The position numbers and the translations under genes were made by a program. A DNA stretch of 44,364 bases, taken from positions 1-44,364 of IMG/VR virus record IMGVR_UViG_3300027697_000033; one strand, 5' to 3'. Shown here piece by piece: positions 19,571 through 40,403 of this stretch; position 1 is the first letter of the stretch; each line of letters opens with the position of its first letter. The notes beneath the pieces were generated by a model. The model had not been told where the DNA came from. It made no database searches and saw only the letters and a list, made by a program, of their open reading frames with translations. This DNA is from a virus. Lineage: Duplodnaviria > Caudoviricetes.

Positions 19571-20089
19571 TTATACTGCGAAATCTGCTGCAGCGGATGT
19601 AGCACCGCCTAACTTATTGCCGTCCTCTAACTTTTGAACGTTGTTTAAACCTGCTGCAATACCTTTGGAACCGCTTGTATCGTAAGCATACAACGTGATT
19701 GAAGCACGACCATAGCAGCCACTATAAAACTCAGATGGATCCAAGATTGGGTTGAGATCTGCATCTACAACACCAGGTTTCTCATTAGAGTTAGCGTTGA
19801 TAAAATAATGACCAGCATATGTTGCGTCATCTTTTTCTGCATCGCCATCACGCAAACCGCCTTTGAGCATCTTAGGAACTGTGCCGCCCCATACAGAAGC
19901 ATTGGCTGTTTTGGTATCTTCAAAAGCCTTATTAAAGCGAGCAATAGTATCTTTATCTGTTTTAGGGATAAGGATTGACACAGAGTATTTCATTGTGCCA
20001 TTGGGTGTTTCTGCTGGTTGAAAAACGTGCGCATAAGAAAAACGCACTTTACCTGTTACAAATTTAGTTTTTACTGATTTTGCTGGCAT
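19571..20089 (-). CDS. Single-stranded DNA-binding protein (DUF2815 / gp2.5-like)
   Basis: VRFSYAHVF, KYSVSILIPK, LRDGD, YSGCYGRASI, GLNNVQKLEDG. Confidence 0.9.
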   Translation of the reverse strand: MPAKSVKTKFVTGKVRFSYAHVFQPAETPNGTMKYSVSILIPKTDKDTIARFNKAFEDTKTANASVWGGTVPKMLKGGLRDGDAEKDDATYAGHYFINANSNEKPGVVDADLNPILDPSEFYSGCYGRASITLYAYDTSGSKGIAAGLNNVQKLEDGNKLGGATSAAADFAV

Positions 20090-20158
20090 AAAATTACCTT
20101 TTTAACGTTAGAGACTGGGCTTCAATAGGGGCCAATCTGTCTACCCTTTACTACAAAA

Positions 20159-22178: not shown

Positions 22179-22360
22179 TATTTTTTAGCTGTCTTTGCAG
22201 ACTGAACAAATGCGTCCTTGGTTGGTGCGCCTTTGGCACCGGGTTTACGCATCTTCTCACCGGAGCCGGCTTTGATGCGCTCTCGTTTGGCGTGGATGTT
22301 GGCATAAAGGCCGACTGGGCCGCCAGATTTCATTTTGGGAAGGCACTTAAAATCATCCAT
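22178..22360 (-). CDS. Small basic phage protein (GLYANIHAKRERIKAGSGEKMRKPG)
   Basis: 60 aa, very basic; N-terminus resembles that of 791..1960. Confidence 0.8.
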   Translation of the reverse strand: MDDFKCLPKMKSGGPVGLYANIHAKRERIKAGSGEKMRKPGAKGAPTKDAFVQSAKTAKK

Positions 22361-22463
22361 AAATTAACCCATAAGTTATACACCACAGCTCCAATAGTAA
22401 CTTATAAGTTACTAACATAGCTACTGGCACGGTTGTTAAATAAAAAATGTCTTTTGTTGTCAT
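22353..22463 (-). CDS. Small hydrophobic peptide (36 aa)
   Basis: MTTKDIFYLTTVPVAMLVTYKLLLELWCITYGLIYG; starts 6 nt after the CCA end of the RNA gene. Confidence 0.45.
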   Translation of the reverse strand: MTTKDIFYLTTVPVAMLVTYKLLLELWCITYGLIYG

Positions 22464-22468
22464 GTGTT

Positions 22469-22549
22469 TGGTGGAGTAGCACGGTACTGCCCCGTGGTCC
22501 GCTGGGTTGCATATCAGCCTTGGCCCCTCGTCGAAACTATACCTACCCC
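22469..22549 (-). ncRNA. Mini tmRNA-like RNA (tRNA-like domain only, Ala identity)
   Basis: GGGGTAG/CTACTCC acceptor stem with G3:U70, ACCA end, stemless D-loop ending TTCGAC, GGAC then T-arm CACGG-GGCAGTA-CCGTG; 81 nt. Confidence 0.8.
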
Positions 22550-22554
22550 ATTGT

Positions 22555-22600
22555 AAAAAAGTCGCGACTTTTTTGTAAATTGGTTCAAAAAAGTCGCAAC
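22555..22600. repeat. 20-bp perfect palindrome plus partial copy upstream of the RNA gene
   Basis: AAAAAAGTCGCGACTTTTTT (22555-22574) and AAAAAAGTCGCAAC (22587-22600). Confidence 0.8.
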
Positions 22601-22605
22601 CGATA

Positions 22606-22863
22606 CTAAAATACTGCAGTGATACGGTTAAAGCGCTTGACGCCGTCAACCAATTGAGCCTCAATTGTGGTGCTGATAAACTTGTTCATCTCAATTGCGT
22701 TGTCAATGATTTCGTGCATTGTGGGGAACTGGGGCGCTTGCTCAAGCAGTTTTTTACCAGCTTCGTCAGCTACTTCCCAGGCTTTTAGCTGGGCGTTGTA
22801 CTGCTCGGTTAAGAACTCCTTGGAGGTCTTGAGTAAGTCATAGCGTAATTCAAATGGATTCAT
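22606..22863 (-). CDS. Conserved hypothetical phage protein (NPFELRYDLLK...FPT..EII..A)
   Basis: Strong AGGAG RBS; first gene after a late-type promoter. Confidence 0.8.
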   Translation of the reverse strand: MNPFELRYDLLKTSKEFLTEQYNAQLKAWEVADEAGKKLLEQAPQFPTMHEIIDNAIEMNKFISTTIEAQLVDGVKRFNRITAVF

Positions 22864-24451: not shown

Positions 24452-24753
24452 AGTCCTAATTCCTTTTTGATAAACTCTACACCTTTTGAGAAATGGTAAC
24501 GCCAATGTTTTTCGGTTACATGTATTTCATTATAACTCTGTCCATTTAAAAAAGCAAGCAAAACCTCCCGTTGTTTAAACGGCATGTTGTTTTCTATCAA
24601 ATTACGGATGTCTTGGATGTCATCTGGTTCCCAGGGTAGCCAGCCTTCAATAAGTTGGGTGGATGTGCCCTCCACGTCATCTTGCTCTAATGGATCTGGG
24701 TCTTCGTCTGATAGTCTTGGAGTAACTGCTTGGATTTTATGTTTTGTTATCAT
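24448..24753 (-). CDS. Stand-alone sigma70 region 4-like protein with acidic N-terminus
   Basis: LIENNMPFKQREVLLAFLNGQSYNEI...KGVEFIKKEL resembles L..LP.RQREV....G.SY.EI; HTH turn appears about 4 aa short. Confidence 0.55.
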   Translation of the reverse strand: MITKHKIQAVTPRLSDEDPDPLEQDDVEGTSTQLIEGWLPWEPDDIQDIRNLIENNMPFKQREVLLAFLNGQSYNEIHVTEKHWRYHFSKGVEFIKKELGL

Positions 24754-25859
24754 ACTCGTGTGTCAAAAATTGCGGCTGCGTAAATGTTCCCCATACCTGC
24801 GGCTAGGCTTAAAATCTTTGGCTTGCGTTTAATCATCATGGGTTCAGACAAATAAACATCATCTTTTTGGGTACGGTTTGGAATGGCTGGCACTATACCT
24901 GATTGCAAACTATCTAATAGCAAACAGGTCTCCAACAAACCTGACGCGCCCATTGTATGTCCTATTATTTGTTTAAAGGATGTCGCAATAAACGGCGTAT
25001 GAAACAACGCCTGTAAAGCCGCTTTCTCAGACATGTTATTTGACTTAGTCCCTGTACCATGCGTTTTAACAATTTGTATCTCCTCTGTGCTTATGTTACC
25101 TGATCGTAATGCTAGGGCGGCGGCTTTTACAAAACCTTGCCCATCTTCACGTTGCCCGATTGCGTTGGTGCTTTGTTCACTAGCCACACCAGCGCTTATT
25201 AGTTTTGCTTTTGGTTTATTAACTAATACATTCTCATTCTCAAAGACGGCAAACACTGCGCCCTGACCGATGTAAAACCCGCCGTTATGGTGGTCAAACG
25301 CAGATGGTTTAATTCCTTGCTGTTCTTTATCGTATGTCAAACACGCGCCCGATTCGCCAAAGAAATGCAATACCTTGTCGTTGATAGTGTCCTCTACGCC
25401 CAACACGCACACCCGATCAAACCCTTGGTATGTCATCAGTTGGCACACGTCCGACATAACTTTGAGGCTGGATGCACAAGCGCTGGCATCGGTTGTGATC
25501 AAATCGTCCGCCCCGCACATCTGCCCGATACGACCAGCGTACACCTGCGTCAGTGTGAGTGGTAGTAGTTTGTAGTCATAGGTCAAACGGCTTTTCTTAA
25601 TAGCGTATGGGTTGATACCGGCAAAGTGTGCGTTACCAGATGCCAAGATAAAAGCAGTCTTGCCTTTGCGCTCTCTAAGTGATCTAAGTAGTTCCACATC
25701 TAACACACGGTCAGCCAGCTTGTGCGGCACGTAAACTAATCCGCTATCTTTTTTGGCAAACAATTCTGGAAACCAGAATGCTCTTTGCGGATAAGACATT
25801 TCATCGAATAAATCAGTATGGGTTGCCGCCACTGTGCGGTAGTCTGTTAAGTAGATCAT
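24750..25859 (-). CDS. Beta-ketoacyl-ACP synthase (FabB/FabF-like ketosynthase)
   Basis: Cys-His-His triad: SACASS, KTHGTGT, FKQIIGHTMGASG; divergent short N-terminus. Confidence 0.92.
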   Translation of the reverse strand: MIYLTDYRTVAATHTDLFDEMSYPQRAFWFPELFAKKDSGLVYVPHKLADRVLDVELLRSLRERKGKTAFILASGNAHFAGINPYAIKKSRLTYDYKLLPLTLTQVYAGRIGQMCGADDLITTDASACASSLKVMSDVCQLMTYQGFDRVCVLGVEDTINDKVLHFFGESGACLTYDKEQQGIKPSAFDHHNGGFYIGQGAVFAVFENENVLVNKPKAKLISAGVASEQSTNAIGQREDGQGFVKAAALALRSGNISTEEIQIVKTHGTGTKSNNMSEKAALQALFHTPFIATSFKQIIGHTMGASGLLETCLLLDSLQSGIVPAIPNRTQKDDVYLSEPMMIKRKPKILSLAAGMGNIYAAAIFDTRV

Positions 25860-26155
25860 TTTACGTTTTCAAGTGCCTCTTCTACGGTCTTTGGTGTTTG
25901 TGTGGAGTGTTTAAACATAAACTCAAATACATCGCGGATTGTGCTTTCTTCCGTGAGTTTCATTAGTTTGACGTCTTCCTCAGACACACCATAGATGTCG
26001 GACAAATAAACACCGACCATCAAGAAGTCCAGGCTATCAAGACCAGTGTCTTTAATTAATGTGTCGAGGCTTTCTATCTTTAATTCATCGGCACTCACAG
26101 GTCTTGCAACCTTTACGATGCCGTTCATAATTAGTAGCAGTTCTTGGTCTGTCAT
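25856..26155 (-). CDS. Acyl carrier protein
   Basis: Acidic 99 aa, GLDSLD phosphopantetheine Ser motif, IYGV..E, TIRDV. Confidence 0.88.
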   Translation of the reverse strand: MTDQELLLIMNGIVKVARPVSADELKIESLDTLIKDTGLDSLDFLMVGVYLSDIYGVSEEDVKLMKLTEESTIRDVFEFMFKHSTQTPKTVEEALENVK

Positions 26156-36953: not shown

Positions 36954-38156
36954 TCATAAATCCCCCATTTCAATATGAATTGTTGATCCCACATTGGGAT
37001 TAGCATCTTTGTTATCAAGTATGCACCACAATACAGGGCAACTCCATTCACCCCATGAACATACATAACCATCTGTAAACACAATGGCACACTCAGGCAC
37101 GATATTGTTTTTGGTCATGTATTTGCCAATACAATCGGGATCAGTTCCACCACCACCTTTGGGTTTTGTGGATTGTGTCATTTTGTCGAACTCGTTTAAA
37201 CCATATACCTCATGCCCCGCAACTCTTGTATCCCAATAAAGTAGATCGACCAATTCGGGGTTTACATTTTCCATCATGTTGGCAACTTCAGATATAAAAC
37301 GATTCAATATGTAATTATTAATAGACCCTGATGTATCAATAGCGACCACCACTCGACCCATTGTTTCACTTACGCTAGAGGGCATATAAATATCGTGTTG
37401 TAGCCACCTACGATTTGGTTTAGCCCATGTGCTATCGTCTTTGCCTTTGCATACTGCACTAACGAACTCAGCAAGGGCGGTTTTCCAATCGACCTTGGCA
37501 CTCATAAGATCAGTAAATGCTCTGTTTTGATTCCCGCCTACTTTACCCGCTAAAATTGCACCTTGTCGTATGGCTTGATCAATCTCTTTGGCTAATTCTT
37601 TTTTCTCTTGCTCGGTTAGTTTTTCTGCGTTTTCCCAATCGTGGTGATCCATTGGTTTAAACGCACCACCCTCGCCATCACCCTTGCCACCACCCCCGCC
37701 ACCTTGGTAGTCAGGCAACAATGCGAACACATCTGCGGTGCTTAAACCTCTAAACTTTTCGTCATATAACCCGCCCTCGGGCAACACGCAAAATGGTTTG
37801 CCATGATTGTCGAGATTTTGTTTACCCTCATCTACGATCTCAATGTTAATCACAAAATCACAAGCCACATTGGTCTTAATTGGGTTGATCTTGGCTAAGT
37901 GTTTCCATGTATCTAAATGGCGATACATCTTGTGCTTTGCCTCATGCAAGATTAGCCCTCTTAGTTCGTTGTCGGTTAGCGAATCTACGAACTTGCGACC
38001 ATACCAAATATCCCGCCCATTAGTTCTAGCGGTTGGCTCGTTGTCATCAATCTTGGTATCGCCCACCATGATTAGGTTTGTGTATGCCACAAACCCACCA
38101 TGCCTCATAATCTCAATGTGTGCTTTTTCAATGCGTTGTTCTGCGGTTAGTGCCAT
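36954..38156 (-). CDS. HExxH metallopeptidase + VWA domain protein (DUF2201-like)
   Basis: TARTNG, LHEAKH, NVACD..IN, DTSGS MIDAS, GGGGTD, FTDG; likely start MALTAEQR. Confidence 0.9.
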   Translation of the reverse strand: MALTAEQRIEKAHIEIMRHGGFVAYTNLIMVGDTKIDDNEPTARTNGRDIWYGRKFVDSLTDNELRGLILHEAKHKMYRHLDTWKHLAKINPIKTNVACDFVINIEIVDEGKQNLDNHGKPFCVLPEGGLYDEKFRGLSTADVFALLPDYQGGGGGGKGDGEGGAFKPMDHHDWENAEKLTEQEKKELAKEIDQAIRQGAILAGKVGGNQNRAFTDLMSAKVDWKTALAEFVSAVCKGKDDSTWAKPNRRWLQHDIYMPSSVSETMGRVVVAIDTSGSINNYILNRFISEVANMMENVNPELVDLLYWDTRVAGHEVYGLNEFDKMTQSTKPKGGGGTDPDCIGKYMTKNNIVPECAIVFTDGYVCSWGEWSCPVLWCILDNKDANPNVGSTIHIEMGDL

Positions 38157-38157
38157 G

Positions 38158-38592
38158 TTAAACCTTTCCCCAATATCCATAAACCATCTTGTTTGAGCAA
38201 TCCCAAATATCATTGGGAATACCATCTATTACTGCCACATAATGCCCCGCTTGTCTAGCAATTACAATTCCACTTGGCATATCTGAACATTTCGCTTTTC
38301 GTCCAAATAAAACTTTGCCCTCTGAATTTTTATACCCCTCAAGCACTTTAAATTTTGGTGCTGAGTGCCAAACCCACCCATGCCTTTTTAATACATCAGA
38401 ATACACATCTTTATAAATGCCGTTCCTTGCGGATTTTGTAAACCCTTTGTCTTTGTTGGCTTGGGCTAATTCGTTGTAGGCGGTTTGGTAATCAATACCT
38501 AACGCTATTGCCATAGCCCTTGCCCCACAATCACCCGCTTTGCCTTTATAACCCGCTTTGGATCGACCACCATCATTAAATATAAAATTCAT
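38158..38592 (-). CDS. Putative papain/C39-like fold protein
   Basis: GDCGARAMAIA...GHYVAVIDG...DIWD suggests Cys-His-Asp. Confidence 0.6.
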   Translation of the reverse strand: MNFIFNDGGRSKAGYKGKAGDCGARAMAIALGIDYQTAYNELAQANKDKGFTKSARNGIYKDVYSDVLKRHGWVWHSAPKFKVLEGYKNSEGKVLFGRKAKCSDMPSGIVIARQAGHYVAVIDGIPNDIWDCSNKMVYGYWGKV

Positions 38593-38746
38593 AATTGCCT
38601 TTCATCAAATCCATACTATATTTTCGCCCACCTTGCTTGGAAAATATATTAGGGCAAACCCTAAGTTTGTCATGTCTTGGTTTCACAATGTGAAATAGTT
38701 TCATGTCAATAGGTGTTTACCCTACCCCCATGTTTAAACATTACTT

Positions 38747-38983
38747 TCAATCTTCGGATTGGCAAAGCACTTCGTAAAATTCATTTTCTAAATCTTGAAT
38801 TTCATCTTCGGTTAAATCTACATAACAAGGGGTTAGGTCATAATCCCACCCACTTCGTTCACCATCATTACCATCAAAGGTATAAGTGGCAATTATTTTC
38901 TTACCCTCTACATCTACCTCATAAAATTTTTGATACGAGCCAAAAATTTGATCAATCAACAATGGGTCTTTAATCTTAGGCAT
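38747..38983 (-). CDS. Small acidic hypothetical protein
   Basis: 78 aa. Confidence 0.7.
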   Translation of the reverse strand: MPKIKDPLLIDQIFGSYQKFYEVDVEGKKIIATYTFDGNDGERSGWDYDLTPCYVDLTEDEIQDLENEFYEVLCQSED

Positions 38984-38986
38984 AGT

Positions 38987-39169
38987 TTAAACATTGTCCT
39001 CATAGGTTAGGTATGGTTTGTATGGTTTGAGTGCTTTACCAAAAGCCATGAGCATTGGGTTAGCCTCGTCAATGAGTTTGGTTTTTTCCTCAATCGTCTT
39101 AACCAATCTCAACTTATATTGCATGGTGTTGGATAGATCGAGTTCAATTTTGCTTTTTGGGTTTGGCAT
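38987..39169 (-). CDS. Hypothetical protein
   Basis: 60 aa. Confidence 0.6.
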   Translation of the reverse strand: MPNPKSKIELDLSNTMQYKLRLVKTIEEKTKLIDEANPMLMAFGKALKPYKPYLTYEDNV

Positions 39170-39171
39170 GG

Positions 39172-39318
39172 TTATTTTGCTTTCCTTTGTTGGTCAATAA
39201 ATGCTTGTGCCTCATTGAGTTTGTCATTGAATCCATACATCTCAGCAAATTCCTGATCGGGTGCTAGGTCAATGGCTAAGTTCATAAGCATATCAATAAT
39301 TTTAATTGCCTGATCCAT
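39172..39318 (-). CDS. Hypothetical protein (48 aa, not in ORF track)
   Basis: MDQAIKIIDMLMNLAIDL...; GGGAG RBS. Confidence 0.6.
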   Translation of the reverse strand: MDQAIKIIDMLMNLAIDLAPDQEFAEMYGFNDKLNEAQAFIDQQRKAK

Positions 39319-39320
39319 GT

Positions 39321-40403
39321 TTAAACACTCCCAGAGAACATATAGTTATTATCGGTAGCCCACTTTACGAACTCTTTATTGGTTGCAACAATGGCTTTTT
39401 TCTGTGTTCGCATAGCACTCGTAGCAAATAAACCCTGTGATTCTTTGCTTAATCGGTTCATGTATGTAAGCCACTTGGGTAATGTTTCCTTGTCGATCTG
39501 TTGAACTGCCGAATACACAAGCATACAAACTGCTGAGGGCGATTTGGGAATGGGTGCTTTTGTTGGCTCTTTAATAATGCTTTCCCAATCAGGCAACTGC
39601 TCTGACAACTGCACAATGGTCAATGTGTCATAGGTTGCACGATCCCCAATAGTGCCTTTAAGTGCGTGTCCGAGAATGTCGATCCCCAATGGTTTGACCT
39701 TTTTAATAATGTCGCTTGCCTTTGACAAACTGCGAGGGGTTGCAAAAGCGGGGCGGGGTGTGCGTGGATCGTAGATATACTCATTATCTTTTGGGTTAGT
39801 GTAATCCTCGAAACTCGCTAACATCTGCGGGAATTGCTTTACAGTCTGCAAGATTTCAGGGGCTATGTCGTTATCCAATGCAAAGTTTTCGAGCCACTCG
39901 TCAGCCGTAGGTTTACGCACCTTTACAACTGTTAGGCGGTTGCGTGCATGAGGGGGCAACATATCGCCTATGCCCTCATTGGCTAGGTTAGTGGTTGCAA
40001 ATACAATCGATCCATTCGGTAGTGAGTAAGTGCCTAGTTTGCGTTCTAGCATTAATCGTAAACAAGCATTCATAACTGCCTTACTTGCCTTGCCGATCTC
40101 ATCAAGCATTAATACGATTGGTTTGTCATGGTGAAAACCAAATTCCTCATTAGGAATAAATGAGCATACCTCTGCCCCGTTTAAACTGCGTATCTTCGGC
40201 ACTAGAAAATCGCCTACATCTTTGGTTGTCATATCACCATAACAATAATGATATTTTTCCCCTAATTTTGCTCTTAATGCGTGTAGGATTGATGATTTAC
40301 CGATACCCATCTCACCCTGAGCCAATACAGTCGTATGCGTTCCTACTGCTTGAATAAGGTTGGTTGTATCCTGTAATGAAATGGTTTTATATAAGTTTGC
40401 CAT
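39321..40403 (-). CDS. MoxR-like AAA+ ATPase
   Basis: GEMGIGKS Walker A, LMLDE Walker B, ATTN, NRL arginine finger, TPRS sensor 2. Confidence 0.9.
   Translation of the reverse strand: MANLYKTISLQDTTNLIQAVGTHTTVLAQGEMGIGKSSILHALRAKLGEKYHYCYGDMTTKDVGDFLVPKIRSLNGAEVCSFIPNEEFGFHHDKPIVLMLDEIGKASKAVMNACLRLMLERKLGTYSLPNGSIVFATTNLANEGIGDMLPPHARNRLTVVKVRKPTADEWLENFALDNDIAPEILQTVKQFPQMLASFEDYTNPKDNEYIYDPRTPRPAFATPRSLSKASDIIKKVKPLGIDILGHALKGTIGDRATYDTLTIVQLSEQLPDWESIIKEPTKAPIPKSPSAVCMLVYSAVQQIDKETLPKWLTYMNRLSKESQGLFATSAMRTQKKAIVATNKEFVKWATDNNYMFSGSV

Follow-up and report, generated by a model that had tools for sequence, protein, structure and literature searches.

The closest described counterpart of the gene analysed here is the tmRNA of Mycobacterium phage DS6A, which consists of the tRNA-like domain (TLD) and is listed as 'TLD only' (PMC4131195; also PMC11915505); the form itself had already been published, and novelty is not supported. 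Among the 97,179 genes of the 2025 tmRNA database, 9 are entered as 'standard, no CDS' (PMC11915505, Table 3), and the same account also describes CDS-less organelle tmRNAs, including plastid genes. In E. coli, a DS6A-like TLD is reported to be a strong inhibitor of tmRNA (Mao et al. 2009, as related in PMC4131195 and PMC11915505), and the model RNA is reported to have done so 'whether or not chargeable', 'perhaps acting by titrating SmpB' (PMC4131195). The literature searched held no account of a broad phage TLD-only family; it included part of the PMC10690425 supplements, so that an unnamed candidate RNA there could represent this family.

The window considered here is a viral DNA of 44,364 nucleotides (IMG/VR record IMGVR_UViG_3300027697_000033, positions 1 to 44,364), whose minus strand carries at 22469-22549 an 81-nt tmRNA TLD gene, with letters and coordinates just as originally reported. 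Its predicted minimum-energy fold comprises a 7-bp acceptor stem with G3·U70, an unpaired D-loop ending in UUCGAC, a GAC linker, a 5-bp T-arm and a terminal ACCA, and so contains every element that had been read from the letters, discriminator A and encoded CCA included. The 5' strand of the acceptor stem lies at 22543-22549, with G3 at 22547, and its 3' strand at 22469-22479, together with U70 (22475), the discriminator A and the CCA; G3·U70 is the established identity mark of alanine. Helix P2a and its capped interior occupy 22500-22530, where nucleotides 22530-22524 pair with 22506-22500 around two purine mismatches and enclose an A-rich internal loop and a 2-bp P2b stub with a 6-nt closing loop (22523-22507). 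These are followed at 22480-22499 by the GAC linker and the T-arm with its GGCAGUA loop, supported by the fold, covariation and the freed-position scan described below; the linker A at 22498 we take to be the equivalent of E. coli A334. In the stemless D-loop (22531-22542), U 22534 and G 22532 correspond to E. coli U17 and G19, which, like A334, contact SmpB, and G19C abolishes trans-translation, according to PMC8363625.

The insert between D-loop and linker had been counted as 29 nt replacing the tag region. It is 30 nt long, and because 13 of these form P2a, only 17 nt stand for the message region; these lie within P2a, and neither a tag frame nor pseudoknots are present inside helix 2. The feature is real, a tmRNA TLD whose pseudoknot and tag region is replaced by a 17-nt capped helix 2 stub. 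A hairpin with UGC as an alanine anticodon had also been proposed within the insert, but this GCUG/CAGC pairing closes a 10-nt loop, reaches −20.4 kcal/mol versus −24.5 kcal/mol for the P2a fold and is disrupted in 22 of the 34 close relatives; two bases of the UGC, its G and its C, are instead paired within the small P2b stem. Since the predicted fold is no more stable than that of shuffled sequences (z 0.37), the case for the TLD is a comparative one. A degenerate TLD pattern matched the window once and none of 200 resampled windows.

Standard annotation overlooks the gene. ARAGORN, run on the window, did not call it, and Rfam at family cut-offs left it unmatched, the sole match in the window being a DUF2815 RNA motif elsewhere (20087-20147, minus strand), upstream of a gene for a single-stranded DNA-binding protein. 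Run singly, the models for standard tmRNA (RF00023), mt-tmRNA (RF02544) and tRNA (RF00005) also gave no match. Of the comparison with Rfam models suggested originally, what came through was a weak alpha_tmRNA match in a permissive scan, which covers only the 3' end, from the T-arm into downstream DNA, and scores 15.4 bits (E 0.022) against an RF01849 cut-off of 50. A permuted two-piece tmRNA was rejected given this score, the standard order of the parts and the lack of conservation in the downstream DNA; a standard tmRNA, given the absence of an mRNA-like domain with a tag frame; an mt-tmRNA, given the unmatched family model; and a tRNA-Ala, given that neither a D-stem nor a conserved UGC-bearing anticodon loop of 7 nt was found. 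That the gene might score better as tRNA-Ala is countered by the lack of a match to RF00005 and ARAGORN. Among 49 records carrying TLD-only genes, RF00023 scored above the Rfam cut-off in 34 and missed the window and its 7 nearest relatives. A BLASTN search with two family members against INPHARED phages returned no real match.

The comparative evidence comes from a family far larger than the published set. The exact 3' 25-mer of the gene recurs in 34 IMG/VR stretches, and conservation among these relatives stops at the CCA, beyond which two unrelated sequences follow. For wider scans, a degenerate pattern was used in which the TLD motifs stand 15-45 nt apart, pairing is not imposed and position 70 may be C or U. 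In the 21 IMG/VR collection parts scanned, out of 64, it matched at least 120 viral loci, from which about 400 matching stretches are estimated overall. Although pairing had been left free, a 7/7 acceptor stem was present in 118 of the 120 viral matches listed, versus 25 of the 120 listed from GTDB, most of which are 3' ends of ordinary tmRNAs. These scans gave at least 119 distinct TLD-only genes, 98 viral and 21 in bacterial or archaeal assemblies; left out of this number were a permuted full tmRNA (L109), two loci overlapping an ARAGORN tmRNA call (L045, L085), four 3' ends of full tmRNAs (L189, L194, L221, L231) and 94 GTDB matches that failed the pairing filter.

By size, the 119 genes fall into two classes: 40 are short and form a simple hairpin, and the other 79, including that of the window, are long and mostly have P2a, an A-rich internal loop and a P2b stub of 2-4 bp. 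An AAR motif in the internal loop is found in 61 of the 79 long genes, whereas shuffled sequences gave a mean of 20 and a maximum of 33. The stems covary strongly in a homolog collection of the kind originally proposed as a check: across 28 sequences, 96.8% of the cells in the acceptor, P2a and T stems are paired, with 137 double changes, a result matched by 0 of 500 shuffles, and the acceptor helix alone is 100% paired; across 74 sequences, P2a and the T stem are 93.8% paired, with 332 double changes. Together with the fold anatomy and the relatives, this bears out the central claim of the original prediction, a tmRNA TLD without a message; with model R2, whose training set includes the window gene, the latter scores 76 bits. 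By eye, the region where P2a passes through the internal loop into P2b looks like the corresponding helix 2a/2b junction of one-piece tmRNAs of full length, a likeness from which we infer that TLD-only genes may have arisen by internal deletion. An 80-nt form in an Achromobacter assembly (L275:301-380, G055), which is the sole RF00023 match there at 91 bits, may represent an intermediate of deletion or else a collapsed assembly.

The GGCAGUA T-loop, regarded at the outset as an alphaproteobacterial mark, proved uninformative in this respect. The syntenic phages L060, L074 and L079 use TTCGACA, TGCGAAT or TGCGACT instead, and loops of GGC type also occur at loci in Tissierellia, Clostridiaceae and Marinilabiliaceae assemblies; GG-type T-loops are present in 17 of the 119 genes, some of them in non-alphaproteobacterial assemblies.

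Selection on DETERMINANTS was probed by rescanning with pattern positions left free. U70 is present in all 98 distinct viral sequences, although the pattern permitted C. When positions 3, 4, 69 and 70 were freed, 37 of the 120 loci listed were new; 6 of these have a fully paired acceptor, and all 6 carry G3·U70, whereas the remainder look like full-tmRNA ends or a mis-anchored repeat. With G19 and the linker A freed, both were kept in 116 of 120 listed matches. Of the four exceptions, a single one is a TLD-only gene, in which G19 is replaced by U (G19U); the others are a tRNA-Ala and two sequences that are not TLDs. In these searches G3·U70 and the bases predicted to contact SmpB were retained, which agrees with the AlaRS and SmpB determinants assigned originally, and supports the view that selection maintains the alanine identity pair of the TLD as well as these bases. 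Locus L388 is a TLD-only gene with U at the SmpB-contact G19 position.

The window phage, whose record is 67% complete, encodes a DNA polymerase, ribonucleotide reductase, primase, helicase, terminase small subunit and endolysin; neither an integrase nor SmpB was found among the ORFs scanned (60 against PHROGs, 45 against Pfam). As its best DNA polymerase matches are just 33-36% identical, the host is left unassigned. Elsewhere on the minus strand, a beta-ketoacyl synthase (24750-25859), a weak acyl-carrier-like protein (25856-26155, E 0.0076) and a phosphopantetheinyl transferase (30083-30448) make up a small fatty-acid or polyketide module, and 36954-40403 and 33779-34405 encode, respectively, an AAA ATPase with a DUF2201 metallopeptidase/VWA partner and a sigma-70-like factor.

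The TLD gene lies upstream of that for the terminase small subunit. It is flanked on one side by an 85-aa ORF (22606-22863, minus strand; no PHROG or Pfam match), behind which stands a terminator-like hairpin, and on the other by a hydrophobic ORF of 36 aa (22353-22463, minus strand) that lies directly after the CCA and is kept in close relatives without the RNA. The hairpin and its U-run (22555-22600, minus strand; −19.8 kcal/mol), located between the upstream ORF and the RNA, are not listed by a terminator scan with a loop limit of 8 and are bridged by contigs from RNA libraries. The 85-aa ORF is likely co-transcribed with the RNA. It is not an obligate partner, since the RNA is missing at 46 of 80 loci of its relatives: where the ORF is at least 85% identical, the RNA is present at 34 of 48 loci and absent from 14, and at 44-62% identity it is present at 0 of 32. 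The TLD gene is accessory, gained or lost among close relatives. At six loci (L353, L354, L355, L363, L364 and L366), a non-coding stretch of about 100 nt, common to them and apparently containing inverted repeats, sits just after the relative of the 85-aa ORF, in the slot that the mini-tmRNA takes up in the group of the window, and is possibly another structured RNA.

No recurrent partner gene emerged, as no neighbour family is common to more than 5 of 55 RNA subfamilies (91 loci), and an Atlas look-up returned clusters of hypothetical proteins only, under 0.9. In one relative the TLD gene starts 5 nt after a tRNA-Thr gene, and tRNA genes stand within 1.5 kb at 15 of 80 viral loci and within 150 nt at 10 of 80, an adjacency that fits tRNA-like processing. 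A search for SmpB in the 49 carrier records, 15 of them at least 90% complete, found none, and searches of the 49 for RF-1/ArfB-family genes and for Pth gave the same result, so that the RNA would depend on host factors.

A sigma-70-like site at 22579-22550 was rejected as the promoter of the RNA, because it abuts G1 and transcription would start inside the acceptor stem; moreover, 7 of 34 relatives do not preserve its -10 box. The TLD gene is covered by contigs from 7 of 8 freshwater RNA libraries (X5 being the exception), and these continue into the upstream hairpin, which is compatible with read-through transcription; they give no information on RNA ends, strand or level, and may stem from carried-over DNA. 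The 85-aa ORF is covered, at least partly, in all 8 libraries; as these were found with this stretch, the coverage is no more than a lead.

TLD-only genes also occur in cellular assemblies. Of 12 GTDB loci scanned for neighbours, 4 lie beside phage head or packaging genes, and at four Saccharibacteria loci the gene stands amid housekeeping genes. Three of the latter (L376:4950-5014, L377:4777-4841 and L378:5423-5487), from three assemblies, are 65-nt genes near uridine kinase/CYTH and TrmB genes, and each of these assemblies also has a full tmRNA elsewhere. The fourth (L375:3324-3396, G004:C12) is a 73-nt gene about 570 bp from smpB, and no full tmRNA was found in its assembly G004 (0.5 Mb, incomplete). 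Surveys for relatives of the Saccharibacteria gave back the centre genome alone. The two forms also coexist in a complete 123-kb phage (G018), with a 392-nt tmRNA (L374:1089-1480), part of a tRNA cluster, as well as an 82-nt TLD-only gene (L055:1501-1582), and in two cyanobacteria and a Pirellulales assembly; the Pirellulales copy is beside phage portal and terminase genes, so that coexistence there amounts to host plus prophage.

For the function of the RNA, we put at about even chances a model in which the alanine-charged TLD binds host SmpB, displaces host tmRNA at stalled ribosomes and lowers tagging. The RNA would be made by read-through transcription from the upstream 85-aa ORF, cut at its 5' end by RNase P and trimmed at its 3' end to the encoded CCA; host AlaRS would then charge it with alanine, and the Ala-TLD, bound to host SmpB and EF-Tu, would take the empty A site of a non-stop ribosome ahead of host tmRNA and accept the nascent chain. 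As there would be no message to load, no tag would be added, and release would be left to host ArfA/ArfB or drop-off; in tmRNA, tag and stop codon come from the part that is missing here (PMC8012679). What is conserved is what charging and SmpB binding require, the carrier records searched contain no SmpB, and the cited E. coli experiment, in which a similar RNA inhibited tmRNA, speaks for the model. The phage might benefit, at a guess, by having its own proteins or mRNAs spared tmRNA-linked decay. Counted against this charged competitor are the terminator-like hairpin directly upstream of the gene and the fact that ARAGORN labelled 2 of 80 viral TLDs as tRNAs. Furthermore, inhibition 'whether or not chargeable' (PMC4131195) implies that ribosome entry is unnecessary for inhibition, an observation that speaks for a passive sponge that titrates SmpB off the ribosome, with charging merely protecting the 3' end. 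Conservation of the SmpB-contact bases fits such a sponge as well; nevertheless we consider it unlikely, because it leaves the invariant G3·U70, of which no loss was seen among the paired genes sampled, unexplained, and because the internal-loop motif of helix 2, kept in 61 of the 79 long genes, lies outside the SmpB contacts named in the available text of PMC8363625.

Coexistence of TLD-only and full tmRNA, as in G018 and the three Saccharibacteria assemblies, would be odd for an antagonist and is more readily accommodated if the charged TLD-SmpB takes over the peptide and ejects the broken mRNA, adding to host rescue without a tag, in the way supposed for those mitochondrial and plastid tmRNAs that have no tag frame. 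To this possibility, the chief alternative, which we hold only tentatively, also point the invariance of G3·U70, the further cases of coexistence in the cyanobacteria and Pirellulales, the gene near smpB in G004, the neighbouring tRNA genes and the existence of CDS-less organelle tmRNAs (PMC11915505). It is weakened by the lack of a stop codon in the RNA, the absence of RF-1/ArfB-family and Pth genes from the carrier records, the incompleteness of G004, the prophage explanation for Pirellulales and the one cited experiment, which saw inhibition (PMC4131195, PMC11915505). Its broadest form, in which TLD-only RNAs constitute a widespread unannotated branch of tag-free ribosome rescue in phages and some small-genome bacteria (Saccharibacteria) and are not inhibitors, is doubtful; Ala-TLD and SmpB would there free ribosomes without condemning the protein, as a bacterial counterpart of the CDS-less organelle tmRNAs. 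The patchy presence of the gene in close relatives (34 of 48 loci), which we infer to be typical of counter-defence genes, raises the alternative of a decoy absorbing tRNA- or tmRNA-cleaving nucleases, RNase R or SmpB-like sensor domains; such domains are predicted in CoCoNuT systems (PMC10542128), and RNase R-binding fragments of tRNA and tmRNA co-purify with the anti-CRISPR AcrIIIA1 (PMC11662646). This appears improbable, as the TLD offers no anticodon loop to anticodon nucleases, nothing was found that ties it directly to a defence system, and the available portions of these two sources do not mention phage TLD-only genes. Finally, the gene might not specify a functional TLD and might instead be an attP site left over from the 3' end of a host tmRNA, one half of a permuted tmRNA, a tRNA-Ala in decay or a piece of coding sequence. 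Although the alpha_tmRNA match, an overlapping 103-aa ORF and the unremarkable fold z-score lean this way, the covariation of both acceptor strands largely refutes it, and the failure of RF00005 and ARAGORN to match, the differences between relatives both in the DNA after the CCA and in the frame of the downstream ORF relative to the RNA, and the lack of an integrase among the 60 ORFs scanned (in a record 67% complete) make it very improbable.

Set against the 9 genes of the database, at least 119 distinct genes here and about 400 stretches estimated indicate a recurring phage gene and not a one-off curiosity. If the charged competitor does block tagging, phages would possess an RNA-based handle on trans-translation; if rescue proceeds without tagging, the role of CDS-less tmRNAs would become testable. 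Since the gene is present in some close phage relatives and absent from others, these provide a natural comparison.

With respect to known systems, the window gene joins the TLD-only kind represented by DS6A, all of whose sequence-testable features it has. The DS6A gene (tmRNA Website tmID 11587; JN698994 28478-28560) scores 58.1 bits with R2 (E 1.5e-11, a rough value), from whose training set it was absent, and true tRNAs score 16-24 bits in the same search. Both genes are in one piece and share G3·U70, a D-loop ending in UCGAC, P2a, an A-rich internal loop and a capped P2b. They differ in length (83 nt in DS6A and 81 nt in the window), in the encoded CCA, which DS6A lacks, in the linker (CAC versus GAC) and in the T-loop (UUCGAUU versus GGCAGUA); in addition, the DS6A phage bears an integrase, whereas none was seen among the window-phage ORFs scanned. 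Judging by sequence, the TLD-only form, published from one other phage, is common in uncultured phages. Standard one-piece tmRNAs (RF00023) have the same TLD determinants, together with the pseudoknots, resume codon and tag frame that the window gene lacks, and full-length phage tmRNAs, such as the two-piece ssrA of Methylophage Melnitz, are complete genes (bioRxiv 10.1101/2021.08.24.457595), unlike the message-less one described here. Mt-tmRNA (RF02544) and the plastid genes of about 65 bp in Mallomonadaceae are, like the window gene, TLDs without a tag frame (PMC11915505); however, these organelle CDS-less genes replace the organelle tmRNA, whereas the phage RNA must work alongside the full tmRNA of its host.
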